From IMG/VR virus record IMGVR_UViG_3300027985_001212: a DNA stretch of 20,000 nt; one strand, given 5' to 3'. The translations under genes were made by a program, and so were the position numbers. The stretch is from an uncultured virus (IMG/VR IMGVR_UViG_3300027985_001212). Taxonomy: Duplodnaviria; Heunggongvirae; Uroviricota; Caudoviricetes. Each line of letters opens with the position of its first letter. Within the stretch, counting starts at the first letter, position 1. Under the pieces are notes generated by a model that searched no databases, was not told where the DNA came from, and was given only the letters and a program-made list of their open reading frames with translations. Shown here in pieces: positions 297 to 20,000 of this stretch.

Positions 297-1313
297 TTAA
301 CCAAGTAAACGATTATAGTCCGCGATCTTAATCCACCATTCAAATACCATGGTGTCCGGATTGATACGGGGATAGGTCCAGCTATTTAAAAACGGACGGT
401 CTTCACGGGACACCTGAATCATCCATTTCTCACGATAGGCATCGCGCATCTCCGGACAATGTATCTGGGTACAGGTATTAAAGTCCACGATGATCCTTGG
501 GTCTAACGGATGCGCCGTCACGGACCGGAACGGTATCGTAATGATGGAACTTTCAGCTGTCGTGGGATTTTCTCGATCGTAACGAAATTTAGCCCCCAAG
601 TTATCCGCTGTTGGAAAGCTCCACCCCGTGCGCGTCGCGAAGCTCACACACTCCTCGTTCATGTCCAACACAAACCGATAGATCGCCGTATAGTAGTCAA
701 TAAAATACCCAAACATGTTGCTCGGCCATGGGGTCATATACCCTAAGTAAACATTAGAGATATACGTCAACCACAATACAAGCATTAACGTGACCGGGTC
801 ATTATTGGTGTTGTGAAACGTGGCAGTCAAATCAAACGTGCCATTATGCGCATAGATACCGTCAGCCCAACTATGACTCTCTTTGGCAATGCCTTCCGGG
901 GTCGTATAGGTATCGATTTGACCATCTTCCCAGTTATCCAGTTTATCCAGTGCATTGGATAAAATAGGGATAAATGCCTGATCGTGCATAAAGATCGGTG
1001 AAGCGCCCTGTTCACCTTCGATCTTGATGAGATCAGGTGATAGCATATGTTTAATCGCATAATGCAGCGTTTTAGGGTCTTGGGTTAAGAACGGTGACAG
1101 CCGTCTATCTAGTAAAAGGTTATTGTATGATAGATTAAGCCTGGGTCGGGTGAAAAAGACATATCCAAGTGTGTCGGTGTTTGATCGCAATGGATGATGG
1201 GTTGGCATCATGTTGAAGCCATGCAACGCCTCTGTGACTTCCGTCCCCGTAGGGCCCCATCCCTCACTTTGCCGTGCCACTTCGGCCAGTCTATCCAGGA
1301 TATCAGTACTCAT
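297..1313 (-). CDS. Virion structural protein (phiKZ gp88-like), 338 aa
   Basis: Long ORF with GGAG SD (ctcc at 1323-1326). The GYVFFTRPRLNLS motif, DYYTAIYRFVLD and C-terminal YPRINPDT..FEWW resemble the phiKZ-like family. Gene order fits. Confidence 0.75.
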   Translation of the reverse strand: MSTDILDRLAEVARQSEGWGPTGTEVTEALHGFNMMPTHHPLRSNTDTLGYVFFTRPRLNLSYNNLLLDRRLSPFLTQDPKTLHYAIKHMLSPDLIKIEGEQGASPIFMHDQAFIPILSNALDKLDNWEDGQIDTYTTPEGIAKESHSWADGIYAHNGTFDLTATFHNTNNDPVTLMLVLWLTYISNVYLGYMTPWPSNMFGYFIDYYTAIYRFVLDMNEECVSFATRTGWSFPTADNLGAKFRYDRENPTTAESSIITIPFRSVTAHPLDPRIIVDFNTCTQIHCPEMRDAYREKWMIQVSREDRPFLNSWTYPRINPDTMVFEWWIKIADYNRLLG

Positions 1314-1340: not shown

Positions 1341-2519
1341 ATGTTTGCAGAAGATTTTGTCACACTTAAAGAGGCGGTCGTAAAGATCTCACAGGTGTTG
1401 GGTGACGCCTCCGCTGAGGATCTTATCTCGTTTACCCGTGTATTACGGGCAGAGCCCCGCACTATCGTCGACACCCGTTTATTCGGTGGCGAGGCGATCA
1501 GTCCGGTGCTTCAGTCCGCCACCACGTTGTTTACGGGCTATTACCTGCAGGCGTTTCAGCTGATGCAGTTGCGGGTTACCCATGCTGAAGTGGCTGGAAT
1601 GTTGAACCAGATCAATCCGAATCGAGACAGTCGTACGGATGCCCGTATCCTCGGTGATGCCCTGGCGTCCTCGATTCAGAGCGAGAATATGGACGTTAAG
1701 GTAAACCTGGCGGTCGAGGGACTCGGCACACTTGCTACATATTCTTCGCTTACGGAAGCGTCAATGCAGGCAATCGACCTGCGTGAGGCCGCGCGTACGG
1801 CGGCGGGTATCAACGGTGCGACGACCCCGGATGGTATGGTAAACTCCACCGATATGTCCCGCATGATGCGCGAGGCAGTCGATCTGTCCGTGGGTAAAGT
1901 GTTTACCGTCACGGTTACCAAAGACAGAAACCGGGCCGAAATCACGTTGACCGTACGACTGAAGGTGGTGCCGGTGGCATCCAATACCATAACCCATATC
2001 CTGACCTCAGGGGTCAACGGTGCGCCGTCCCTGAAGGAACGCTGGGCGCAGGTCACCAACGATGAGATCCGCTTCTTCCAGGATTTCATGTTCAACATCG
2101 ATCTGATGGAAGAACACAAAAAAGCGATTATCGCGGATAAGACGGGGCTTTACTCCGAGATCTTGGATAATCGTCGCAAAAGCAAACTGTGGGGGTATTT
2201 AACCCTACGTCCCTCCGTCGCTGTGGCCTCCAACATCTGGATCATCGACAGCGTGACCCAAAAAGAGGTTGAGCGTGGACTGCACGGCAGTCTGTCTGAC
2301 AACTACCGGCTGCGGCAGAAACTGTTCGCTGGGAGTTACATGCTCCTATTGATCGTTATCGACAGTCGCTGGGATGTGGTCACGTTCTACCACCGGGGGA
2401 TCGAAGACCCTACGGTTTATAAGATCGGTGATCTGAAAGCGGCTAACCGTGCCGGTGCTACCGATGTTACTGAAATACTGAAGGCCTACCAGGCCGGCAG
2501 TGCCCCTTACATGAAATAG
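1341..2519 (+). CDS. Internal head protein (phiKZ gp89-like), 392 aa
   Basis: Start moved from 1194 to ATG 1341: AAGGA SD at 1328-1332, and this removes the overlap with the divergent gene. Motifs RAEPRTIVD, FTGYYLQA, LSVGK, I.FFQDFMFNIDL and V.FYHRG fit the family as recalled. Confidence 0.75.
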   Translation: MFAEDFVTLKEAVVKISQVLGDASAEDLISFTRVLRAEPRTIVDTRLFGGEAISPVLQSATTLFTGYYLQAFQLMQLRVTHAEVAGMLNQINPNRDSRTDARILGDALASSIQSENMDVKVNLAVEGLGTLATYSSLTEASMQAIDLREAARTAAGINGATTPDGMVNSTDMSRMMREAVDLSVGKVFTVTVTKDRNRAEITLTVRLKVVPVASNTITHILTSGVNGAPSLKERWAQVTNDEIRFFQDFMFNIDLMEEHKKAIIADKTGLYSEILDNRRKSKLWGYLTLRPSVAVASNIWIIDSVTQKEVERGLHGSLSDNYRLRQKLFAGSYMLLLIVIDSRWDVVTFYHRGIEDPTVYKIGDLKAANRAGATDVTEILKAYQAGSAPYMK

Positions 2520-4016: not shown

Positions 4017-5153
4017 ATGTCCACGGATGTAACGGACGATTACTATACCGACGTCATCGGTGTCGAAACAGCACTCCAAGCGGTGCAACACACCCAATAT
4101 CAGATGACCTGTTTGCAGGATAGCCTGCAGGTGTTCAGTGCGTTGGAACAGTTTACGGAATCCCTGCAGGCCAAAGGTCAGGTTGATGACACGTTGGTCG
4201 CGGTAAAAACCAGCCTTCAGTCCGCCGCGGGTCTGGGTCCTGAAACCGTTTCACTGCAAGGCTTCGTCGAAACCCTGCGGGCCGCCTGGACAGCCCTCCA
4301 GAAGATGATGGATCGGGTGGCTGAAAGCCTGCGGACGTTATGGGATAAAATCTTTGGTTCGTTACCGACCATGCGTGAGCGGCTGAAGAAACAAGCGGAT
4401 GCAATCAGTACACGCGAAAAAGAGAAAACTACCAACAAGAAAAACAAGCTGAGTGTAACCGGCTACAATGCGTTAGGGGGCGGCGGTCGACTTGATAGTC
4501 AGACCGTCATCAATGGTCTGAAAGCGATGCATGCGGCGCTGAGCACTGCCTATGGGCTGCGCACAGATGTTATGGCGGTCTATCAGTCAATGGCGAGTCA
4601 TTTCACTGACCACACGATCGCCAAACGTACCCCTGAACAGCTAGCGCAAATCACTAGCGAAACGACCGAAGCGTTGTCGAAGAAGTTTATCAGCTATAAA
4701 GCGTTTAACGATATGGACAAGATCACCTTGCCGGGGGACAAACGGGTCGCCGTGGTCCCGAACGAAATGCCGCGGGTGATTAAAGTAGGCGAAGACCATG
4801 ATGACCGGATCGAAGTAAACGCCTGGTCATTGATGGAGTGTCAAAAGGTCAACGATGAAGCCATTAAGGTGGTGGATATTATGTTGGCGAACAAAAACTT
4901 CAAAGATGATCTCGAAAAGGCCCGTAAAACGGCGGTAAGTGCCACTGATAAGATGGTACGGTCGGTCAACCGAGCCGGCGAGGTCGGGGGCACCGGCGGT
5001 AATCTGAGCGCGAAGTCGGTCGATAAACGGATGCGCGTTTTCAGTCGCTTCAATACTGGCGTATTTGATAAACTCAATACCTTTGGGTACAACAGTGCGC
5101 GTACTGCGTACAATGTTGTTAATCTTATGGTGGCAAATAAAGTGGCGGTATAA
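4017..5153 (+). CDS. Internal head / ejection protein paralogue 1 (phiKZ gp93-97-like family), 378 aa, with acidic propeptide
   Basis: GGGAGG SD. Acidic N-terminus, then the amphipathic helix GFVETLRAAW...LWDKIFG, then a basic body. Shares LPGD, AWS and YNSAR motifs with the next two genes. Confidence 0.75.
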   Translation: MSTDVTDDYYTDVIGVETALQAVQHTQYQMTCLQDSLQVFSALEQFTESLQAKGQVDDTLVAVKTSLQSAAGLGPETVSLQGFVETLRAAWTALQKMMDRVAESLRTLWDKIFGSLPTMRERLKKQADAISTREKEKTTNKKNKLSVTGYNALGGGGRLDSQTVINGLKAMHAALSTAYGLRTDVMAVYQSMASHFTDHTIAKRTPEQLAQITSETTEALSKKFISYKAFNDMDKITLPGDKRVAVVPNEMPRVIKVGEDHDDRIEVNAWSLMECQKVNDEAIKVVDIMLANKNFKDDLEKARKTAVSATDKMVRSVNRAGEVGGTGGNLSAKSVDKRMRVFSRFNTGVFDKLNTFGYNSARTAYNVVNLMVANKVAV

Positions 5154-5226
5154 GCCCCACTGGCTGCTGTTACAAAAAAACCACTACCTGCGCAGGGGTG
5201 GAAAACTTACGAATGGAGTAAAGAAC

Positions 5227-6468
5227 ATGTTCGATATGCACGTAAGCCTCCAGGAACTGATGAACGAAGAAGACGTCCCGATGGCGGCCGAGACCGACGA
5301 AGGCTACGACGAATCCGTTGCCGAAGTCGCCATGGCCGAGACCTCCATGCAGGCCGCTGTCTACATGGAAAAACACGCACTGCGCGTGTTCGATGCCCTG
5401 GAATCCATGCAGTCCGTCATCACCGAAGTCGCCGGCGACAAAGGTCTGACGGTGGGTGAAGCTACCCTGATGCGTGAAGCCCTGCAAAACCTGGCCCCGG
5501 AGCTGCAGCTGGGCGCTTCGGTGTCTACCCAGTGCTTCGACGCCAACCTCGACGACGATGGCCGTCGCACTGCCTGGGAAGTATCCGCGCAGGCGATCGG
5601 TGAACGTCTGGCCGCTATCTGGCGCGCCTTCGTCAACGGCGCTCTGCGCGCCATGGCCAGTATCGCCGACTTCTTCTCCAAGGTGTTCTCTTCCGCACCG
5701 AAGCTGAAAGCCAAAATGGTGGCACTGAAAGACGAAGTAGGCAAGGCTAAGTTCGCCGGTGAAGGCAAAGTGAAGGTATCCGGCTACAGCCGCCTGGGGT
5801 TGGGCGGTAAGATGGACCCGGCAACCATCGCCAAGGCACTGGGTAACCTCGACGATTTCATGAAGCGCGTCATCGCCACCAAATCTGAACTCGTCAACTT
5901 CTACAAGGAAACCGGCTCGACTGTCGCCAAAGCGATGAACGAGAAGTCCGAAAGCACCGCGACGGAACTGGCAAAGACTATCGATACCCTGGTGAAAGAC
6001 AGCAATGTGCTGGCTGACGCCGATAAGCTCCCCGGTATCGAGCTGCCGGGTGATCGTAAGTTCGATAACAATTCGCTGGCGCTGCGCAGTAAAACCACTG
6101 CCAATGAAAGCATGGAGATCGACGCCTGGTCATCTGCCGACTGCACCACCGTGCTGGATGCTGCCATCGCCGTGATCGACACGCTGCTGAAAGACACGAA
6201 CTACCCCAAAGAGGCTAACGCGGCCCGCAAAACCGCTATGGAAGAAGTGACCAAGCTGGTCGACAGCTTCGATCGTGGTCGCTTGGCCAAATGGTGGACC
6301 CGTACTGCAGTGGATCAGTACATGAAGGCTGTCCGTAAAAACTTCGTCACGGTCTACAACAGCGGTGGTAACCTGGCGTACTCCTCTGCTCGTGCGGCCC
6401 TGGCTGCCGTTGAGACGATGAAAAGCGCGGCCACCAAAGGCAAGAAAGAAGACGCCCCGGCGGCGTAA
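5227..6468 (+). CDS. Internal head / ejection protein paralogue 2, 413 aa, probably highly expressed
   Basis: Start reassigned from 5065 to ATG 5227 (GGAG at 5215-5218). Very acidic N-terminal 122 aa, then AIGERLAAIW...FFSKVF and an Ala/Lys-rich body. Visibly C/G-ending codon bias and its own terminator. Confidence 0.8.
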   Translation: MFDMHVSLQELMNEEDVPMAAETDEGYDESVAEVAMAETSMQAAVYMEKHALRVFDALESMQSVITEVAGDKGLTVGEATLMREALQNLAPELQLGASVSTQCFDANLDDDGRRTAWEVSAQAIGERLAAIWRAFVNGALRAMASIADFFSKVFSSAPKLKAKMVALKDEVGKAKFAGEGKVKVSGYSRLGLGGKMDPATIAKALGNLDDFMKRVIATKSELVNFYKETGSTVAKAMNEKSESTATELAKTIDTLVKDSNVLADADKLPGIELPGDRKFDNNSLALRSKTTANESMEIDAWSSADCTTVLDAAIAVIDTLLKDTNYPKEANAARKTAMEEVTKLVDSFDRGRLAKWWTRTAVDQYMKAVRKNFVTVYNSGGNLAYSSARAALAAVETMKSAATKGKKEDAPAA

Positions 6469-6484
6469 TTAACTACCGGCACTG

Positions 6485-6511
6485 AGGAGAACCCTTCGGG
6501 GTTCTCCTTTT
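6485..6511 (+). terminator. Intrinsic terminator with cUUCGg loop
   Basis: AGGAGAACCC-TTCG-GGGTTCTCCT (10-bp stem) followed by TTT, starting 17 nt after the stop at 6468. Confidence 0.85.
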
Positions 6512-6586
6512 ATGCCGCCTCATAAACCCCATGATATGCACTGTGCATATATCACTAAACGTTGCAACGTTTTAGGAGTAGACCGT

Positions 6587-7900
6587 ATGGATATTTTAAC
6601 TGAATGTCTTCAGGGGCTGGACGCGACAGTCGTTGAAGTAAAGAAAGCGGCCCCGGCCGCCGTGGTGGATGAACTGCTCGATCCGATCGTGGAAGACGGT
6701 CTGGAAGAGGACCATGACTTCACCAAAGTGGTTGAAGCCGAACTCGACGCACAAGCAAAGCTCGTGGTGTCCGAACAGGCCTATAATCTCTTTGTGGGGC
6801 TGGCCGGCATGTATGACCAGATTAGCGTGTTAGCGGGGGATACGGGACTGACCCAACGCGAAGCCCTGCTTGCACAAGCTAGCCTACAGAACCTGGTACC
6901 GGAACATACGTTCTTAAACGACGTGATGGCCACCCAGGGTTGGGGTACCGCCAGTACGCGTAACGAGGCGACTGAAACCTCATTGCAGGCGATCGGTGAA
7001 CGGCTGAGCCGCGTGTGGCAGATCATGTTGAATGGCATGCAGCGTGCTATCGCCGCGGTGATGAACCTGTGGCATGCCATCTTCGGCTCCCTGCCGCAGC
7101 TGGAGAAAAAACTTGAAAGCACGATGACCGCTGTCGAGGCGATGAAAACCAGCAAACCGAAACTGGCGGAAAAAACCCTTACCTTTACCGGCGCCTCGAC
7201 GCTGGCGTATAAAGGTAAAATGGATCCGACCTCTGTGCGTACCGGTATCAATGAAACCGCTGTCGTGTACAAAGCAGTTGTGGAATCGACGGGTCAGGTA
7301 ACGAGTGAACTGTCTAAGTTAAGCACCACCGTTACGTCGGTGATGGGTTTATCGGAAGAAGAGCTGAAAAGTCGTTTCGGTGATGTATCCGGTAACCTGG
7401 CGGCCGCGATGGGGGCAATTGATGAACCGAAACTCCCCGCCATTAATCGCGAGATGAGCGGCGGTAATATCCTTGTACTCCATGGCACCGGGGAAGGCAA
7501 TAAGACAGCCAAGGTGAAAGTGAGTAAAGTGGAAGGGGGTGCGGGACAGGGTGCTCAGACGGCTGATGCCTGGGGACACGATGATGTACTGCGGGTATTG
7601 AAAGATGCTAAGGCACTTCTGGAGGTAGTGTCGCAGAATCAGGATATTCCCGCGAAAATCAAGAAAGCCAAAGACGCGGCGACCAAAGAAGCCGATAAGC
7701 TGGTAAAAACCTTTGATAAAGGGACACTGGCCAAATGGTGGACCCGTCAGCGCGTTAACAGTATACTGGCAACTATCACCAGCAATCGCTACGCATATAT
7801 CGACAATGTCGGCACCCACTCGTATAACGTGGTGCGTACGGCGGTGAATGCATCGCTGATGTGCACCCGTAACTTCGTGGCGGACGACGCCGGTAAATAA
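6587..7900 (+). CDS. Internal head / ejection protein paralogue 3, 437 aa
   Basis: Start reassigned from 6512 to ATG 6587 (AGGAG at 6574-6578). Shares Q-AIGERL, GKMDP, DAW and LAKWWTR with paralogue 2. Confidence 0.8.
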   Translation: MDILTECLQGLDATVVEVKKAAPAAVVDELLDPIVEDGLEEDHDFTKVVEAELDAQAKLVVSEQAYNLFVGLAGMYDQISVLAGDTGLTQREALLAQASLQNLVPEHTFLNDVMATQGWGTASTRNEATETSLQAIGERLSRVWQIMLNGMQRAIAAVMNLWHAIFGSLPQLEKKLESTMTAVEAMKTSKPKLAEKTLTFTGASTLAYKGKMDPTSVRTGINETAVVYKAVVESTGQVTSELSKLSTTVTSVMGLSEEELKSRFGDVSGNLAAAMGAIDEPKLPAINREMSGGNILVLHGTGEGNKTAKVKVSKVEGGAGQGAQTADAWGHDDVLRVLKDAKALLEVVSQNQDIPAKIKKAKDAATKEADKLVKTFDKGTLAKWWTRQRVNSILATITSNRYAYIDNVGTHSYNVVRTAVNASLMCTRNFVADDAGK

Positions 7901-7975: not shown

Positions 7976-8015
7976 TCTTACGCAATACCCTACTTCAGTT
8001 TAAAGGAGTTACCTC

Positions 8016-8522
8016 ATGACTAATATTAAACGCCCGATCCTTTCCACTAAACACCGCACGCAGTATCAGCAACGCATGGATGCGCTGTATAAACTGTTGG
8101 AAAAGGAGATCGACACGTATGTCGCACGTGTGTCCCGTGGCGCGCCCGAATCCATCGTGACGGAGCTGAAGGCGTTCTTCGCCCAACGGGATATCATGCT
8201 GATGATGATCAATCAGCTCGATGATGCAGTCGCCGAACTGGCGACTGAAATGGGTTGGGGGAACTTTATTATTCAGTTGAAAAATCGCCCGACTCCGGGT
8301 GAGCTGAAACAGATCTTCGATAAGATCTTCAGCACCGAGGTCATCGGGACCAAGGTGATGTCGATTCTGTTTGAAGTCAATGCGGACGTCCCCCCCGATA
8401 TGTCCGATGAACCTCCGATAAAAGGAGAATGGCCTATGGTAATCCCCCAGGTAGAAGATGGGGCGTTGTATGCAATGGCGGTACGCAACCAGGGTTTCTG
8501 GGCGCGCCGGTTCTGCTTCTAA
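8016..8522 (+). CDS. Hypothetical protein, 168 aa
   Basis: Strong AAGGAG SD, flanked by hairpins on both sides. Helical N-terminal half; no recognised motif. Confidence 0.7.
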   Translation: MTNIKRPILSTKHRTQYQQRMDALYKLLEKEIDTYVARVSRGAPESIVTELKAFFAQRDIMLMMINQLDDAVAELATEMGWGNFIIQLKNRPTPGELKQIFDKIFSTEVIGTKVMSILFEVNADVPPDMSDEPPIKGEWPMVIPQVEDGALYAMAVRNQGFWARRFCF

Positions 8523-8530
8523 CGTGAATA

Positions 8531-8559
8531 CCCCCTCTTCCCTTAATGGGAAGAGGGGG
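8531..8559 (+). terminator. Hairpin, probable terminator or processing signal
   Basis: CCCCCTCTTCCC-TTAAT-GGGAAGAGGGGG, a 12-bp stem just after the stop at 8522. The T-rich tract (8578-8595) is displaced downstream. Confidence 0.65.
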
Positions 8560-8650
8560 GTTACACTATCCATTATGTTTTTCTTTGTTTTTTTGGGCTG
8601 ACCGAGACCTAATCCTATAGTCTCCACTACTGTTAACCGGGAGCAATACC

Positions 8651-10204
8651 ATGCCACGGACACCCTATGCCATCACGGATACGGACCAGACGGTCGTACG
8701 TCCGATCATCTTTGCGGTCACGCGGGACCTGTGCCGTGCCATCGGCATCGGTAATGCGAAAACACTACCGGACATTCAATACAAAGGTGAAACCCTGGCG
8801 CTGCCGACCCGAAACGGGACCATCGATGAAGAGGCGCGGGATATCTATAACCGAGAATCCAATATCACCTTAGAAGCCAATATCGAGCCTGTGTTGGAGG
8901 ATGGTAAAAACCAAGCCCCCGGGCGTAACCAGGAACCCTTTCTCTTCCAAGACAGCGCCCTTGGGGTATTTGTGCGACCTGTCCACACCTCGAAGCAGGT
9001 TATCTTGACCATTGAATACCGCGCTAATACCCCGCGGGAGATGCAGACCTGGCTTAACCAGATGCGTGTGTATGCCCAAGCAGGGCGTGATCAACTGCAC
9101 CATACCGTTAAGTATCACTACAATATCCCCAGCATGATCAAGTTCACCCTCTACAAGTGCTGGGAACTACGGGAAGCCGTAGAAGGGTATGGGGATACCT
9201 TTGCGGACTGGTTTAAAGGGAACATGACCCCGAGCATGACGCAGGTCGCCAATATTTCAGGCGGTGCACCACAGGCCGTTATCAGTGAATCACAGATCGA
9301 TATTCAGGGGACCTTTAACTTTGTGGCGGCACCCGATCGCCCTGAAGTATCGGAACGCAATGGTGCCTCAGTTGCCCGGTTTGAATACACCTTTCGGTTT
9401 GACCATCCGGACATGATGGTCATATCTCACCCTATTCTGATTCATAACCAACTTCTCCCCGCCCCGCTCATCCAACCGCCAGAGTCGTTTGACTTTGCAA
9501 CCTTCGCTAGTCACGGGACGTTGTTTCAAGAAGCGTTCTATTCCTTAGGGGGGCGGATCCTAGCACCTAACGGCGGAAACGGCTTGGTGATCCCGACAGG
9601 GGATGACTGGCTATTACCCTATCGCCCTACGGGGTATTATCCTGTCGTACGGTTTTTGCAACAGATTGACCCCGCCGATCCAACCTTCATTATGAACTTA
9701 CGGGACATCGGCAGCGTCTTTACGTTTAACGATGCGTTATTAGCGTTTTCCGAACGCCAATATGCCGCACTGACTGTGATCCATGATACACCGCTTCTTT
9801 TCCTGCTCTATGATGGTGATGGGTGTTATTTTGCTAGCGCTGTCACGATCGACAGTAATTTAGACCTGCGCGCCGCCGCGCCGTTATCATTACGCGGGGT
9901 GTATCATGTACAGGTCTTCTGTCTCGGCGAAATGAGTCGGTTACCGACGTTTATCCAGGAGGACTTGCGGTGTCACCCGCAAGCACTGCAAGCGATCTAT
10001 GAATTTCTAACCAACACCCCCCTCACCTTACCCGATTTACTAGGGAACGGGTGTTTGACCAAGGATGCGTATAATGACATTATCGCTAGTGTCGACCCCG
10101 TAACCCGCGTCGGCCAACGGCCCATCAATGGGTATACGCCCGGTCGTCCGGCCTGGGTGATGCGGACGGTTAACGTCAGCAGCATTGTAACGCTGCGTAA
10201 ATAG
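8651..10204 (+). CDS. Virion structural protein (phiKZ gp98-like), 517 aa
   Basis: GGAG SD. Motifs VRPII, FLFQDSALGVFVRPV, HTVKYHYNIP, FEYTFRFDHP and PILIHNQL. Gene order matches phiKZ-like structural modules as recalled. Confidence 0.65.
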   Translation: MPRTPYAITDTDQTVVRPIIFAVTRDLCRAIGIGNAKTLPDIQYKGETLALPTRNGTIDEEARDIYNRESNITLEANIEPVLEDGKNQAPGRNQEPFLFQDSALGVFVRPVHTSKQVILTIEYRANTPREMQTWLNQMRVYAQAGRDQLHHTVKYHYNIPSMIKFTLYKCWELREAVEGYGDTFADWFKGNMTPSMTQVANISGGAPQAVISESQIDIQGTFNFVAAPDRPEVSERNGASVARFEYTFRFDHPDMMVISHPILIHNQLLPAPLIQPPESFDFATFASHGTLFQEAFYSLGGRILAPNGGNGLVIPTGDDWLLPYRPTGYYPVVRFLQQIDPADPTFIMNLRDIGSVFTFNDALLAFSERQYAALTVIHDTPLLFLLYDGDGCYFASAVTIDSNLDLRAAAPLSLRGVYHVQVFCLGEMSRLPTFIQEDLRCHPQALQAIYEFLTNTPLTLPDLLGNGCLTKDAYNDIIASVDPVTRVGQRPINGYTPGRPAWVMRTVNVSSIVTLRK

Positions 10205-13632: not shown

Positions 13633-14268
13633 ATGCGGATGGCCTTTTTCTTTAACGTCGAAGGGATCGATGGGAGCGGTAAGACCAGTGTTCTCGAAGC
13701 GATCATGGCCTGGTATCGTCAACAGGATGAACCGCTTCAATTATCACTCGAACCTGGCGGCCCACCCATTGCGCAAGCGATCCGTGAAGTGATCCTCGCC
13801 GATTACCCGACCGATGACTTTAGTGGCATTACAGAAGCCCTGCTGTACAGTGCTTCACGCCACCAGAATTTCAAGAACATCATCCTGCCGGCACTGGATG
13901 CCGGAGTCGACGTCTTGACGTCACGTTTTGCGGATTCGACACGAGCCTATCAAGGCTATGGGCGTGGGGTCAGTCTGGACATTATCGATCAGCTAGAAGC
14001 GATCGCCAGTCTGCGGCTTAAACCCACGCTAACGTTTGTACTGGATGTCGAGCCGTCCGTCGGGTTGGCCCGTGTCTATAATGCCCGGAACATCGATCGT
14101 TTAGAGTCAAGTCCCCTGGATTTTTTTGTGCGTTGCCGTAACGGATTCCTGGAGACAGCGCGCACTAACCCCGCCCGTTATCATATCGTCGATGCCGGTC
14201 AGCCGCTGGAGACTGTGACGGCTGAAGTTATCGGTCACATCGCGGCGTTAAAAGGTAAAACCCCATGA
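13633..14268 (+). CDS. tmk: Thymidylate (dTMP) kinase
   Basis: P-loop EGIDGSGKTS, EPGG, EALLYSASRHQ, RFADSTRAYQGYGRG, PTLTFVLDV and DRLE. The true start may be ATG 13639, given the AAGGAG at 13625-13630. Confidence 0.95.
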   Translation: MRMAFFFNVEGIDGSGKTSVLEAIMAWYRQQDEPLQLSLEPGGPPIAQAIREVILADYPTDDFSGITEALLYSASRHQNFKNIILPALDAGVDVLTSRFADSTRAYQGYGRGVSLDIIDQLEAIASLRLKPTLTFVLDVEPSVGLARVYNARNIDRLESSPLDFFVRCRNGFLETARTNPARYHIVDAGQPLETVTAEVIGHIAALKGKTP

Positions 14269-15995
14269 ATGACTACCCGGTTGAACATGAACCGCAAGAT
14301 ACGCATGAAGAGTACGATGAGTATACCTACAAAGCCGCCTTGCCGGTCACGTTAGACGTTGGGCTTTGTATTCGGGAATTATCGAATGTCCTGGCGCAGA
14401 TGTCGGTTGACCCGATCCCGCTTATCGCGATCCACGAGCCAGAAGGGACCGAGTGTGAGGCTAGAATCAGCGCGAAAGGTATTACGCAATATCGGTTTTA
14501 CGACCGTCTGTCCGGCACGTGGATCAGTAGCGCTATCCCGGATGCACTGGAACAGCAATGGCGCCACGCGATCCACCGTGAAACACTGGACGCCGTTATC
14601 ATCAGTGGTATCGAAACCCGTAATGGGGAAGTCGTGATCATGAAGGCGATCCCGGACGACAAACGTCTGTTTAATCGCCGGTTTTCCGCTACCCTCGCCC
14701 ACTTGAAGGACTGTGGGTTTAGTGTAAGTCACTGGTGTTTTATCAAAAAACTTGACCCCCCGAATATCTTTACCTCTATGTCTGGCGGTTACCGTATTTT
14801 TCCAGATGACTATACCGTGGCGCTACAGGCGTTGCTGCGGGCGATCGGTAAAGCGGGGGTCGACGGGATCCGGGTAGCGCTGGGCCACACGCCTCCCACA
14901 GGCGCTGTTCGGGTCGTCTCTGCTATCGTCGCCCAGACTGAAGCCGACGGCATTATACGGCCATACGGGGTTGTTCAACCCATGGTCCTTAATCAGCACT
15001 ATATTGACCGCGTGCCGCTGGGTGACTGGCGCTTAGCCAATCATTTACTGCGCACACAAAGTCGTTTCATGGTATCTGAGGACCATCAAACGATTCAGCT
15101 GATGGGATCTGAAACCCCCGACCCCGATATCCCGCCGCTTGCAGGGCACCTTAAAGTGCCGGACGAAATACGCCCGCGCCAATGTCCACGGTGTCACCAA
15201 CCTACCCGGTGGGGCACGCCCACACTTGCCCCTTGGGGGGAAACAGTAAGCGCCGCCACTGACCTCAACGTCTACTGTACGAATTCTCACTGTGCCGCTA
15301 CGCTGGTAAAACAAGTGCAGCGGTTATTATCCCCCATTGGGTTGGGGTGTTCTCGCGTAACGCGGCGTGAAATTGAACTCCTGGTCGACGCCGGCCTTAT
15401 CGTACACCCGACCGATATTCTGTTCCTCGACTACGCCGAAGCGACCGGTATATTGAGTGACGTGGTTACCCACGTACGCGGTAAGATGACTGGAAAACGG
15501 ACCCTCACGGCTGGCCGGGCGTTATACGCCCTCTCAATACCCGGGGTGACCCCAGGCATCGCGGCGTTAATCGACACTCTCCCGTCACTGGAGACATTAG
15601 ACCTCACCGACCCGGTCATTAAGCGCCACCAGAAGGTATTACGCGTTGCTGGTGACCTGTTAGAAAACGAAACCTTCATTCAGCAGTATAGTAATATCTT
15701 CGAAACGCTACAACTGGATATTATCGAAGATACTGAACACCGCGGAAAAGGTATGCGGCCGTTGATGGGTAAAACCATTGGCATCCTAGGACCCTTTAGT
15801 CGTCTATCGGTCAGTGAGATCGAAGACGAACTTAAACTCCAGGGCGCGGTTGTGTACACGTATCTGGACCCTGCATGTGACTACTATTACAGTGAACGTC
15901 TGGTAGAAGCGCACGAGATGCCCCAGGACATCCCCAAACACTCACTCGAAGAACTGTATCAAACCGTGGATCGTATCCTCCCTCCCTGGGATTGA
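14265..15995 (+). CDS. Degenerate NAD-dependent DNA ligase (LigA)-like protein, probably catalytically inactive, 576 aa
   Basis: LigA domain order: motif-IV-like DGI, OB-fold-like segment (DGIIRPYGVVQPMVL), Cys4 Zn finger (CPRC...YCTNSHC), HhH repeats (LVDAGLIVHPTDILFL; LYALSIPGV) and BRCT (LMGKTIGILG...ELKLQGA). No KxDG. ATGA overlap with tmk. Confidence 0.75.
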   Translation: MNDYPVEHEPQDTHEEYDEYTYKAALPVTLDVGLCIRELSNVLAQMSVDPIPLIAIHEPEGTECEARISAKGITQYRFYDRLSGTWISSAIPDALEQQWRHAIHRETLDAVIISGIETRNGEVVIMKAIPDDKRLFNRRFSATLAHLKDCGFSVSHWCFIKKLDPPNIFTSMSGGYRIFPDDYTVALQALLRAIGKAGVDGIRVALGHTPPTGAVRVVSAIVAQTEADGIIRPYGVVQPMVLNQHYIDRVPLGDWRLANHLLRTQSRFMVSEDHQTIQLMGSETPDPDIPPLAGHLKVPDEIRPRQCPRCHQPTRWGTPTLAPWGETVSAATDLNVYCTNSHCAATLVKQVQRLLSPIGLGCSRVTRREIELLVDAGLIVHPTDILFLDYAEATGILSDVVTHVRGKMTGKRTLTAGRALYALSIPGVTPGIAALIDTLPSLETLDLTDPVIKRHQKVLRVAGDLLENETFIQQYSNIFETLQLDIIEDTEHRGKGMRPLMGKTIGILGPFSRLSVSEIEDELKLQGAVVYTYLDPACDYYYSERLVEAHEMPQDIPKHSLEELYQTVDRILPPWD

Positions 15996-16648: not shown

Positions 16649-17752
16649 ATGAAAGAATACGTTGACTACATCCGCGATATCTACGAAAACGGACATACTG
16701 ATGATAACCGCACTAATAATCCGGCGCGTAAAGTGTTTGGTCGGATGATGCGGTTCGATCTAACCGAATGCAAATTCCCGCTGGTACAGGCGAAGTTTAC
16801 TCCGATCAAAAACATCGCACGTGAACTGCTCTGGTTTATTTCGGGCGATACCAACAATGAAACACTGGCGGAGCAAGGGTGTCATATCTGGGATAACTGG
16901 GCTGTTGAAGACGGTGATCTGGGCCCGATCTACGGTAAGCAATGGCGTGACTTTGGGGTCCCTGGTTCACTGATCAGTGTCGACCAAATTAACGAACTAA
17001 TCGAAGGGCTTCGTGAGAAACCGTTATCTCGACGACACATCGTCAATGCCTGGAACCCAACGGTCTTGCCGAATGAGAAATACAGTCCCCAGGAAAATGT
17101 AAAGATGGGGCTGCAATCGCTGGCGCCTTGCCACGCGCTTTTTCAATGCCATGTGCGTACTCTGAAACTTGCTGACCATAATCGTTACATTACTGGGCGA
17201 ATGCGAGAACTGGGTATTGAGTTTAACCCGCTGGAAGATACGGTTGCTAACATGCAGCCGGAAACAGAAACGATTCTACGGGAGACCATTTTCAAAGACA
17301 ATATCGATTACTTTGATCAATGGCTAAACTATTGCCGTAAAGAATATCCTAAGTCTCGGCTCCGGTCTGTAATCTTCCACCAACTGTCTAACATGGGACA
17401 AATCCCACAATACGGCCTGAGCTTGCAGCTATATCAAAGATCATGCGACAGCCCCGCCGGCGTGCCCTTCAACATTGCTTCCTACGCCATGCTGAATATC
17501 ATGCTGGCACGCCTCGTAGGTATGGCCCCGCTGGAGTTTATTTGGATGGGCGGTGATTGTCATATCTATGAAAACCAGATTGAAGCGGTTGAAGAGATGT
17601 TGGCTCGACCACTGGTGGAAACCACGCCGTATTTGATCCTGCCGGAACATACTCGCAACTATACGCATTTGGAAGATTTCAAGTTGGATGATATTACGTG
17701 CGTAACGAATTATCATCCACATCCCAAAATCGAGGTTGCGATTTCAATCTAA
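16649..17752 (+). CDS. thyA: Thymidylate synthase (ThyA) with a large internal insertion, 367 aa
   Basis: ELLWFISG, IWDNWA, DLGPIYGKQWR, SRRHIVNAWN, catalytic LAPCH, LYQRSCD..GVPFNIASY and GDCHIYENQ. GAGGA SD. Confidence 0.97.
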   Translation: MKEYVDYIRDIYENGHTDDNRTNNPARKVFGRMMRFDLTECKFPLVQAKFTPIKNIARELLWFISGDTNNETLAEQGCHIWDNWAVEDGDLGPIYGKQWRDFGVPGSLISVDQINELIEGLREKPLSRRHIVNAWNPTVLPNEKYSPQENVKMGLQSLAPCHALFQCHVRTLKLADHNRYITGRMRELGIEFNPLEDTVANMQPETETILRETIFKDNIDYFDQWLNYCRKEYPKSRLRSVIFHQLSNMGQIPQYGLSLQLYQRSCDSPAGVPFNIASYAMLNIMLARLVGMAPLEFIWMGGDCHIYENQIEAVEEMLARPLVETTPYLILPEHTRNYTHLEDFKLDDITCVTNYHPHPKIEVAISI

Positions 17753-17797: not shown

Positions 17798-17826
17798 AAG
17801 TCAAAAAAGCAAATAGGTAAACAGCG

Positions 17827-18279
17827 ATGGAATACATAGGAACGTTAGAGGATTTTAAAACGATAGGAGCTATCTTTAACATGCTCACTGAGCGCTGCGA
17901 GATGTTTAAACAGCAAAGTGTCCATTTCCCTATAAATAAAGCGGGTAATCTGTATCTGGAACTTGCTTGTAAGAGTGAAGGGATGGGGGACTATGACCCT
18001 AATGTGGTTAACGATACGCCTGAACAGACCGTTAAGTTGATGGTAGATAATTTTTACCTTTCTCTGAAACAGATACCGCAGCTGGCAGAAGAAGATTATC
18101 CTGAAAAATCAGTCATCAAAAAATACCTACAAGAATACCATGACTGGGTAATGACATACAATCACTTGGGGCGTGAAGTCCGCAATACACACATTTACCA
18201 TATATCAACACCGGATAAGTGCGCTTTCTTCCAGTGTACCTTGACGATATTGCTGAACTTTATGAAAAACAATAGCTAA
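17827..18279 (+). CDS. Hypothetical protein, 150 aa (putative accessory paralogue A)
   Basis: AGGT SD, AT-rich ORF. Resembles 18945..19379. Confidence 0.7.
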   Translation: MEYIGTLEDFKTIGAIFNMLTERCEMFKQQSVHFPINKAGNLYLELACKSEGMGDYDPNVVNDTPEQTVKLMVDNFYLSLKQIPQLAEEDYPEKSVIKKYLQEYHDWVMTYNHLGREVRNTHIYHISTPDKCAFFQCTLTILLNFMKNNS

Positions 18280-18442
18280 GGTTATCGAGTTTTTTTAATC
18301 TGCTATAATGGCATTAGTTCATGAAATCCATGCATCGTTAATAAATGTCAGGACCGCCCGCAGCTCATCCCAGCAGCAATACATGAAGAGCGCATACGCG
18401 TTCTTAAACGGTTTATTAAACAAACCCTAGAGGTTATAAACC

Positions 18443-18919
18443 ATGAACAATGATATCTACATCAACGGTAATTTAGTCAATCTGCCAAAGTATCTTAATA
18501 CGCTACGTGAGCGGGCATTGGAAAACCCCATGGCGTCGTCCTGTATGGTCATCGATCCAATGGAGGCCTGTGACCTTACAATAACGGTAATCTATATCGG
18601 GGATAAATATAAAATACCTGACCCCGAAACAGTGGATACCCCGGCGGTCAATGCAGTTAAGTTCACTTCGCTTATGCATCATCAGATAGTTGAAATTAAC
18701 GATACCGAACAACTCAATATCGTTCTATCTAAATTCGATGAAAAAATATTCTACGTTGCGATAACGGCGATGAAGTGGGTGGAGCAATTCAAACACTCAA
18801 ATGTTGTTGACGTTGACGGAAATAAAGCCATCCTTTTCATGCATAATGAAGGCACATTTCTGTTATCATTGGAAATCGTTTCTAGCACAGCTGAAAGCCA
18901 AGAGGCGGTGCTTAACTAA
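18443..18919 (+). CDS. Hypothetical protein, 158 aa (putative accessory paralogue B)
   Basis: GAGGT SD. Similar size and hydrophobic pattern to its neighbours. Confidence 0.7.
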   Translation: MNNDIYINGNLVNLPKYLNTLRERALENPMASSCMVIDPMEACDLTITVIYIGDKYKIPDPETVDTPAVNAVKFTSLMHHQIVEINDTEQLNIVLSKFDEKIFYVAITAMKWVEQFKHSNVVDVDGNKAILFMHNEGTFLLSLEIVSSTAESQEAVLN

Positions 18920-18944
18920 CTGGATTACTGGTAAGGTTTACAAA

Positions 18945-19379
18945 ATGCAGACTATGCACGATATGTTTAATCATTTATTTCATACAGCTGAACCTGGAAA
19001 AGATAGTTCTCTTAAGTGGCCGGTTGATGAAGGTAACTTGTTCTATATAGAGTTGGCTGTACTTAATCGCGGGCCCGGGATTATTATTAAATCCGAAATT
19101 GATGAAGCTGAATGTAGAGAAGTTACCATTAAACGACTGCAAGAGGGTATAAGCGGTTCGCTCGCCGGAAAAACAGTCGAGTTAGTTAACCCCGATGACT
19201 GGAAAACAGTTGCAGCGCAATACGCGAATGAATTTATTGATCACGTTTTCTCATTTAAAGAGAAAGCAGTAGATGAATCGAAAGAGTGTTTTGCAGTTAA
19301 ATACGATGATGAGGTGTATGTGGTCATGATAAGTGTAGTTCCTTATACGGAAGTTCATAGTGTCATGACCATTAATTAA
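18945..19379 (+). CDS. Hypothetical protein, 144 aa (putative accessory paralogue C)
   Basis: Start reassigned from 18801 to ATG 18945 (TAAGGT SD), which removes the overlap with the upstream gene. Confidence 0.7.
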   Translation: MQTMHDMFNHLFHTAEPGKDSSLKWPVDEGNLFYIELAVLNRGPGIIIKSEIDEAECREVTIKRLQEGISGSLAGKTVELVNPDDWKTVAAQYANEFIDHVFSFKEKAVDESKECFAVKYDDEVYVVMISVVPYTEVHSVMTIN

Positions 19380-19407
19380 ACCTGAAGCAGTACAGAGGTA
19401 GATAAGT

Positions 19408-19737
19408 ATGTCTTTTCTTGCTTTAGTTAAGAAATGGGTTTTACCTAAGCGAAAGTTTGATATAGATACCCGCGCAAAAATTATTGGGTCGGAACTTAAA
19501 CGTCTAGGTGCCGCTTTACATAATCCTAATTTTTCAACCACTGCCGTCCTATTATTTCTTACGGCAGAACTCGATCAAGATGGTGAAAGAAAAGCATTAG
19601 CAGAGCAGATCTACCGCGGCCCAGATAATGAAGTCATTACCAACCTCCATCGTTTTTTAATTAAAGGTGATCTGTTGAATCGTAGAAACGTAACGTATTT
19701 TCAAATTCCAGGAATCGATCTGAAACTACTCGATTGA
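19408..19737 (+). CDS. Hypothetical protein, 109 aa
   Basis: GAGGT SD and operon-like spacing. Confidence 0.65.
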   Translation: MSFLALVKKWVLPKRKFDIDTRAKIIGSELKRLGAALHNPNFSTTAVLLFLTAELDQDGERKALAEQIYRGPDNEVITNLHRFLIKGDLLNRRNVTYFQIPGIDLKLLD

Positions 19738-19746
19738 GGTGATATC

Positions 19747-20000
19747 ATGGTTGATCAGATTTCGCTTAGAGAGGCGTTCTATCGCCATATGCAACAGCGA
19801 TTGAAGAAATGGTATTTTTGCCAGGTCAACTATAGCGTCCAATATACGTACCCTGGGAATATGATGGATTTTCCCTACCGGGTAATCCTTAAGTTGGATC
19901 ATTGGTTAAGATTCCATCAGAAGTACACGGTTATACCCGATATTGTTGCCCCGCAATATGAAAGTAAACTGATTGAAGCCGTGCTTGATGTCGAAGAAGG
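19747..20000 (+). CDS. Hypothetical protein, 3' end outside the window
   Basis: Not in the ORF track. GAGGTGA SD overlaps the upstream stop. ATG 19747 opens a frame that runs to the window end: MVDQISLREAFYRHMQQRLKKWYFCQVNYSVQYTYPGNMMDFPYRVILKLDHWLRFHQKY... Confidence 0.7.
   Translation, partial: MVDQISLREAFYRHMQQRLKKWYFCQVNYSVQYTYPGNMMDFPYRVILKLDHWLRFHQKYTVIPDIVAPQYESKLIEAVLDVEE

Follow-up and report, generated by a model that had tools for sequence, protein, structure and literature searches.

I propose that the prohead protease of an uncultured jumbo phage cleaves after Gln, where those of its relatives cleave after Glu, and that the sites in its substrates match. The phage is represented by a stretch of 20,000 nucleotides from the IMG/VR record IMGVR_UViG_3300027985_001212. 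This whole stretch, called the window here, carries the module of head genes from a jumbo phage that is phiKZ-like but divergent. The proposal is that three paralogous internal head (ejection) proteins encoded there, IP1 to IP3, would be made with N-terminal propeptides, which a protease of the S80 family would remove and chop at S/A/T-x-Gln sites. The last cut would yield mature N-termini beginning GFVETLR..., AIGERLA... and AIGERLS.... Recognition of P1, the residue just before the cut, would have altered in the S1 pocket of the protease, and the substrates would have followed. I put the probability that the window's phage has such an enzyme, with matching sites, at about 0.6.

Gln at the positions of proven Glu cleavage sites

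IP1 (4017..5153; 378 residues, of which the propeptide takes up about 81), IP2 (5227..6468; 413 and about 122) and IP3 (6587..7900; 437 and about 134) are all encoded on the plus strand. They match the phiKZ_IP family (PF12699) with 57.9, 95.4 and 58.4 bits, all above the gathering cut-off of 27 bits, and PHROG 2497, "internal head protein", matches them as well. Identity between pairs of them is 24-30%. Sequences resembling Shine-Dalgarno sites lie upstream of all the starts chosen: AAGGGAGG upstream of that of IP1, the start of IP2 being the ATG at 5227, and AGGAG before 6587, the likely start of IP3, whose longest open reading frame (ORF) begins at 6512 without a ribosome-binding site.

Where propeptides of this family are cut is known from Salmonella phage SPN3US. 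Mass spectrometry places the cleavage sites after AQE-95 and AQE-125 in gp53 and after AQE-124 and ARE-137 in gp54 (PMC10052503 Table 2), and (E)GWKETLK... and (E)SLWDDIK are given as semi-tryptic peptides (PMC10052503 Fig. 3 legend). The window's proteins have one close relative among 5.8 billion proteins, P0005, which is 50% identical to IP2, is encoded on a 1.5-kb contig and bears the same S-x-Q motifs. A profile of IP1-3 and P0005, run against 1.84 billion representative proteins, found 940 relatives, and the best 150 were aligned, with P0021 omitted. When gp53 and gp54 of SPN3US are added to this alignment, gp53 E125 and gp54 E137 fall in column 122, gp54 E124 in column 102 and gp53 E95 in column 87. 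The omitted protein, P0021, from the representative library, is 7162 residues long and matches the profile in 16 stretches, making it a giant protein of fused or repeated internal-head-protein domains.

At all three columns the window's proteins have Gln. Column 122, the putative maturation site, is occupied by Q81 of IP1 (VSLQ|GFVETLRAAW, the bar marking the predicted cut; 4257..4259), Q122 of IP2 (VSAQ|AIGERLAAIW; 5590..5592) and Q134 of IP3 (TSLQ|AIGERLSRVW; 6986..6988). Column 102 holds Q102 of IP2 (VSTQ|CF; 5530..5532), the counterpart of AQE-124 in gp54 and of S/A-L/M-E|S-F-G in the family, and Q117 of IP3 (MATQ|GW; 6935..6937); IP1 does not have this segment. Column 87 holds Q68 of IP1 (TSLQ|SAAG; 4218..4220), the counterpart of AQE-95 in gp53, Q87 of IP2 (EALQ|NL; 5485..5487) and Q101 of IP3 (ASLQ|NL; 6887..6889). 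With P0005 included, the sequence is [A/T/S]-L-Q at column 87 in 4/4 proteins, [S/A]-x-Q at column 102 in 3/3 and S-x-Q at column 122 in 4/4. The original prediction had named Q81, Q122 and Q134 and listed the motifs in each propeptide; on re-reading, sites, coordinates and lists all proved exact. The propeptide of IP1 has SLQ four times along with ALQ, AVQ and CLQ, that of IP2 has SLQ, SMQ twice, ALQ, STQ and SAQ, and that of IP3 has CLQ, SLQ, ATQ and SLQ.

The family at large has Glu at these places. Among the aligned relatives, leaving aside the window's own lineage, 145 rows fill column 122: 135 with E, 3 with Q and 7 with other residues. For column 102 the figures are 127 with E, 8 with Q and 3 with others, out of 138. 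The consensus around column 122 is A-T-x-V-S-[L/M]-E|[G/S/A]-I-K-E-T-L-K-K-I-W and around column 102 it is S-[L/M]-E|S-F-G. By alignment, phiKZ gp92-95 and gp97 have S-x-E at column 122, and three of the four aligned internal head proteins of Xanthomonas phage RTH11 have Glu at both columns, the fourth having it at column 102 only. In the family, P3 of the maturation site is S in 103 rows, A in 18 and T in 17, and it is small also in the window, whose proteins, wherever they have the segment, show S, A or T at columns 85, 100 and 120. Since P3 remains small, P2 aliphatic or small, and P1' one of G, A and S, the change would lie in the recognition of P1 by the S1 pocket.

Enrichment and retention of the motif

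Might Gln-rich propeptides generate S-x-Q by chance? IP1 is indeed rich in Gln, with 11 Q (and only 4 Glu) in the 81 residues of its propeptide. The frequency expected from composition was estimated by composition-preserving shuffles, 20,000 per propeptide. The motif [SA]xQ occurs 6 times in IP1 against a shuffle mean of 1.87 (P=0.003), 6 times in IP2 against 1.43 (P=0.0002), 4 times in IP3 against 1.46 (P=0.038) and 5 times in P0005 against 1.09 (P=0.0008). The motifs are, besides, conserved by column and present in P0005. An effect of composition deserves almost no credence.

The same shuffles find the canonical motif, [SAG]xE, at chance in IP2 (P=0.55), IP3 (P=0.83) and P0005 (P=0.80), and slightly raised in IP1 only (3 against 0.87; P=0.03). 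In the 145 relatives a propeptide contains on average 8.0 instances of [SAG]xE and 1.46 of [SAG]xQ; in IP1, IP2 and IP3 the counts are 3 and 6, 4 and 6, and 2 and 4.

Gln is also the most conserved residue class of the propeptides of this lineage. It occupies 7 positions, 3 of them invariant, versus 11 of 115 for all the rest (Fisher P=0.03) and 1 of 15 in the case of Glu, and the pattern extends over paralogues that share just 24-30% identity. All six motif Gln residues of IP2 are kept in P0005; its single Gln outside a motif is not. Codon reassignment or a sequencing artefact as the source of the Gln residues was considered and ruled out: the sites are encoded by CAA as well as CAG, and columns of Q and E are otherwise normal, as in the invariant GYYLQ of the gp89-like protein described below.

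The original prediction held that the lineage has switched P1 from Glu to Gln. Because the Gln residues of the window stand at columns homologous to proven Glu sites (Glu in 135/145 of the family at the last of them), are conserved and are enriched, the part of that claim that concerns the substrates is strongly supported. A complete switch is not, given the [SAG]xE motifs that are retained, and the interpretation as a whole has partial support.

Probable Gln-type systems elsewhere

A maximum-likelihood tree (quick search, 73 rows) of the mature parts of the internal head proteins groups IP1-3 with P0005 as one clade, with a support of 96 in the Shimodaira-Hasegawa-like approximate likelihood ratio test and end branches of 0.4-1.8 changes per site. 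Three relatives apart from this clade, on other contigs, have Gln at both columns 102 and 122: P0022 and P0035, sisters (support 98) nested among Glu-type rows, and the long-branched P0147. Their sites read TLQ|SFG with TQQ|G or TAQ|K, and NMQ|SF with CMQ|SV. These are all of the non-own rows with Gln at column 122, so no row has it there alone; Gln at column 102 without Gln at column 122 is found in five, of which four keep Glu at column 122 and one, P0152, has Leu. The co-occurrence (3/5/0/130) has a Fisher P of 1.3e-4, uncorrected for kinship.

A protein 56% identical to P0035 is encoded by G001, an uncultured jumbo phage of 213 kb in IMG/VR, which also carries an S80 protease. (Its loci in the survey described here are L006, L008/L014, L094 and L131; L125 is the same phage on a metagenome contig of the Joint Genome Institute, JGI.) The C-terminal region of this protease contains SPQLQ|S ... 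QTMQ|SGG ... LTAQ|QL, where its counterpart in RTH11 contains SPSLE|S ... VSME|SNGG ... VSME|SL. At both conserved self-cleavage columns Glu is found in 185/185 other distinct S80 proteases, and Gln in G001 alone. That set comprises the best 120 of 524 matches to the RTH11 protease among the 5.8 billion proteins plus 77 from IMG/VR, de-duplicated and with L048 and L090 omitted. Of 80 S80 loci surveyed in IMG/VR, G001 is the sole Gln-type, 78 are Glu-type (L048 being so on inspection) and L090 has a scrambled C-terminus.

Several other head proteins of G001 show Gln as well. Its major capsid protein has D-Y-T-Q-Q|S-F-D at the column of G-L-E163|N in phiKZ and A-T-E130|Y in SPN3US, E163 and E130 being the capsid maturation sites given for these phages in PMC11297242 and PMC5694885. 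The propeptide of the capsid protein contains TLQ, TVQ and TLQ, and T/S-x-Q is found in the internal head proteins and the gp89-like protein. G001 thus resembles the window in having Gln at the homologous maturation columns of the internal head proteins and in the linker of the gp89-like protein, and differs from it at P3, which is mostly Thr (T-x-Q) rather than Ser or Ala. Gln-type S80 systems, judged by these sites, seem to exist outside the window.

An AlphaFold2 model of the G001 protease (mean predicted local distance difference test score, pLDDT, 84.2) has T4 gp21 (5JBL) as its best match (Foldseek probability 1.00, template modelling score 0.57, target-normalised). Departures of G001 from residues that are at least 85% conserved cluster just after the catalytic Ser137, where S-[I/V]-R-S-[L/M]-T-x-D has become S-G-R-Y-Y-S-N-P; others are N26D, E132C, C135A, G149N, N165T and A172S. 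A search for a substrate-bound structure with this fold found none. Further Gln-type proteases were sought with a degenerate DNA pattern (DYVxEPG...PxLQ). The sole match in JGI metagenomes was the G001 phage again, and four matches in bacterial genomes were due to chance, with no similarity to S80.

A possible further substrate in the window

The gp89-like head protein of the window (the counterpart of phiKZ gp89 and SPN3US gp50, as judged by phrog_3239, alignment and synteny) may be a substrate as well. Its gene, for 392 residues, lies at 1341..2519 on the plus strand; the longest ORF starts at 1194, overlapping the tail-tube gene, and 1341, with a Shine-Dalgarno-like sequence upstream, is the likely start. 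SPN3US gp50 is cleaved in its linker after ATE-127, in the numbering of the paper (PMC10052503 Table 2). At that position the window's protein has Q143 (EASMQ|AIDL; 1767..1769), in the last motif before the conserved C-terminal domain, and G001 has SAQ|IDR. Earlier in the linker, Q113 (SSIQ|SENM; 1677..1679) lies within two residues of the [SA]xE|xY column of the family, the residue alignment there being ambiguous; the same region of G001 reads FTLQ|HDMSALP.

Weighing the alternatives

Several observations weigh against the proposal, at least in its strict form. Canonical motifs have not vanished from the window: [A/S]-L-E at columns 57-59 is kept in 3/4 proteins of the lineage (the family has E there in 110 rows), and A-[W/T]-E, or GPE in IP1, occupies columns 116-118, four to five residues before the last Gln. 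In the gp89-like protein, E126 (LAVE|GLG; 1716..1718) remains at a conserved x-L-E column, and G001 keeps G-V-E there. G001 also keeps T-V-E at column 102 of an internal head protein, and its portal protein has F-T-L-E|S where that of SPN3US has ATE-161. Since G001 retains some T-x-E, strict and relaxed specificity for Gln look alike in that phage; its enzyme, to go by these sites, may favor Gln yet still accept Glu. In the window's phage, likewise, the enzyme may take either residue at P1, or the Glu site may have moved. Nor is G001 close to the window: their tail tubes are 34% identical, compared with 40% for RTH11, and their conserved proteins 28-34%. In a quick tree of gp101-like proteins (35 rows), the long branches of the window, G001 and phiKZ come together with little support. 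Gln use in the two phages is likely of independent origin, on this comparison, and G001 would demonstrate that the mechanism exists, not that the window's phage has it. The original prediction had placed the protease gene outside the window, and indeed no S80 protease was found in it, either among 20 ORFs or in a six-frame scan with a purpose-built S80 profile. The genes for the protease, capsid and portal would all lie beyond the DNA analysed, and the support for an enzyme that cleaves after Gln is wholly comparative. Finally, since IP1-3 and P0005 form one clade, the change from Glu to Gln at each column may have been one event before the paralogues split, not three or four independent ones. 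On these sequences, the weight of the argument is in the retention of Gln over long branches, not in repeated change inside the window.

The retained Glu residues invite another account, in which a conventional Glu-specific S80 enzyme now cuts at the upstream A-[T/W]-E (GPE in IP1) and at [A/S]-L-E, leaving S-x-Q as relics or as structural elements of the new N-terminus. In IP2 the rival site would be E118 (TAWE|VSAQ; 5578..5580), four residues before Q122, and every paralogue of the window in which column 118 is filled has E there, as does P0005. The same A-T-E lies beside S-L-E in 23/145 Glu-type relatives, and such a double site could permit neutral loss of the second Glu. Moreover, A-V-E is kept in the gp89-like protein, and column 102 looks dispensable, with Gln in four rows that have Glu122 and in P0152, which has Leu122. 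What this account leaves unexplained is why paralogues so diverged should have held on to Gln, specifically, at columns 42, 87, 102 and 122, and why [SA]xQ should be enriched, down to four SLQ in an IP1 propeptide so poor in Glu. In IP2, IP3 and P0005, [SAG]xE is no commoner than chance predicts. If the cut followed GPE, P2 would be Pro, a position occupied by L, M, V or I in the family, and the other Gln lineages, P0022, P0147 and G001, have no Glu at column 118. I consider a displaced Glu site unlikely.

Perhaps there was no switch at all: S80 prohead proteases might tolerate Gln, which is isosteric with Glu, at P1, and sites would then drift between the two with no change in the enzyme. T-x-Q and T-x-E are mixed at homologous sites in G001, S-x-Q stands alongside conserved [SA]xE in the window, and the five rows in which column 102 has Gln and column 122 does not are what drift would produce. 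It is hard to square drift, however, with the rest of the family. Column 122 is Glu in 135/145 rows and has Gln only where column 102 has it too, and free drift predicts scattered Gln at the two self-cleavage columns, where the 185 other proteases uniformly have Glu. T4 gp21 offers another case. By cutting after Glu it trips activation loops of CD-NTases of the cyclic-oligonucleotide-based antiphage signalling system (CBASS), and according to a preprint (PMC12991175) the response is abolished when all four loop Glu residues are replaced by Gln; gp21 belongs to a different family, S77. Drift under an unchanged enzyme strikes me as quite improbable.

A role for S-x-Q other than processing by the prohead protease would also account for its conservation. 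The motif could be a targeting or assembly signal of the propeptide, or the site of another protease, the sites not being cut by the S80 enzyme. The original prediction had the last site just before the first helix. The AlphaFold2 model of IP2 (pLDDT 87.6) instead puts Q122 inside a helix, 110-174, and Q42 and Q62 inside another, 29-69; the location of Q122 counts also against cleavage after it by a Gln-specific protease. Cleavage at the sites of the window is itself a prediction from sequence. Nevertheless, another role would have to make light of the sites' exact alignment with three columns where cleavage is proven, of P3, P2 and P1' preferences that are unchanged, and of the same replacement at the sites where the G001 protease processes itself. 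I judge it very improbable. Cleavage after Gln by the phage's own S80 protease is thus the explanation I prefer, with the qualifications given above.

Relation to known proteases and possible origin

Apart from P1, the window fits the system known from phiKZ (protease gp175), SPN3US (gp245) and 201phi2-1, in which a Peptidase_S80 (PF20034) acts on PF12699 substrates. The substrate family and the gene order are the same, and the acidic propeptides are similarly long, about 80-135 residues, with several internal motifs. P3 is S, A or T, P2 L, M, A or T and P1' G, A or S, at the same columns as the gp53 and gp54 sites (PMC10052503, PMC5694885). The difference is Gln instead of Glu at P1 of three homologous columns, along with the lack of enrichment of [SAG]xE. 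T4 gp21 (Peptidase_S77) is a more distant comparison: it shares superfamily and function with the S80 enzymes, stripping N-terminal targeting propeptides from internal proteins (PMC5694885). Unlike the predicted enzyme, it cuts after Glu, in I/L-x-E with a hydrophobic P3, and its propeptides are of 10-20 residues; what these accounts say of its sites includes no Gln.

Glu at P1 is the stated rule for prohead proteases (in passages of PMC5694885, PMC10052503, PMC11297242 and PMC12991175), and searches of the available literature brought up no prohead or maturation protease with Gln at P1.

Outside phage heads, cleavage after Gln is familiar from picornavirus 3C and coronavirus 3CL proteases, which favor a small P1'; SLQ|A and SLQ|G resemble their sites. 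The resemblance is of motif only, since those enzymes have an unrelated chymotrypsin-like fold, use cysteine catalysis and process polyproteins.

How might such a change come about? One can imagine that re-targeting of P1 from Glu to Gln arose independently in two or three lineages (the window with P0005; G001 with P0022 and P0035; P0147), with sites co-evolving across the head proteome, from the internal proteins to the capsid and the protease itself, and that it was driven by escape from sensors or decoys of Glu-specific proteases, CBASS CD-NTase activation loops for example. By analogy, the effect of replacing the loop Glu residues suggests a selective reason for altered P1 specificity. Taken as a whole this history is speculative, and I hold it to be rather doubtful.

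The matter has practical consequences. The Glu rule, true of all T4- and phiKZ-type prohead proteases studied so far, guides the prediction of mature proteins in the annotation of jumbo phages and in the building of cryo-electron microscopy models. If there is a lineage that uses Gln, predictions based on Glu would fail in it. Should the proposal be right, it would also provide a Glu-type and a Gln-type enzyme as a natural pair with which to locate the S1 pocket, the changes beside the catalytic Ser of G001 being candidates, and a clear case of a protease co-evolving with dozens of its sites. The idea that phages shift protease specificity to evade immune sensors of prohead-protease activity would become testable.

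Gene order and other features of the window

The order of genes supports the assignment of the window to the phiKZ-like phages. The tail-tube gene (297-1313, minus strand; PF23971) is followed on the plus strand by the gp89-like gene, a gp90-like gene and a gp91-like gene (PF25618), then by the three PF12699 genes, and downstream of these by gp98- to gp101-like genes, a thymidylate kinase gene, a ligase-like gene and a thymidylate synthase gene, in that order. From the tube to gp98-101, with the gp89-, gp90- and gp91-like genes and the internal head proteins between, the order is common to the window, phiKZ, RTH11 and SPN3US, and the tandem PF12699 paralogues are placed as in the head modules of those three phages. 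The closest named relative is RTH11, whose tail tube has the highest identity, 40%. An exact match of 54 bases was absent from collections of viral, metagenome and genome contigs. Megablast of the window found no match among GenBank phages, no close relative was found in IMG/VR with either the alignment of internal head proteins or the gp101-like protein, and the sole match to IP2 by tblastn was a weak one, in PhiPA3.

Between IP3 and the gp98-like gene lies a candidate ORF of 168 residues (8016-8522) without a family match, overlapped on the opposite strand by a candidate ORF of 222 residues (7995-8663). The end of the window, 17800-20000, has a G+C content of 0.40, against about 0.52-0.55 before it, and the ORFs in this part (17827-18279, 18443-18919, 18801-19379 and 19408-19737) match no PHROG or Pfam family. 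The ligase-like gene (14265-15995) encodes a protein of 576 residues that matches the PHROG for NAD-dependent DNA ligase weakly (E 1.5e-12, residues 303-538) and has no Pfam match. The thymidylate synthase (16649-17752, 367 residues) matches its Pfam family in two stretches, around an insertion of some 80 residues at roughly residues 175-255.

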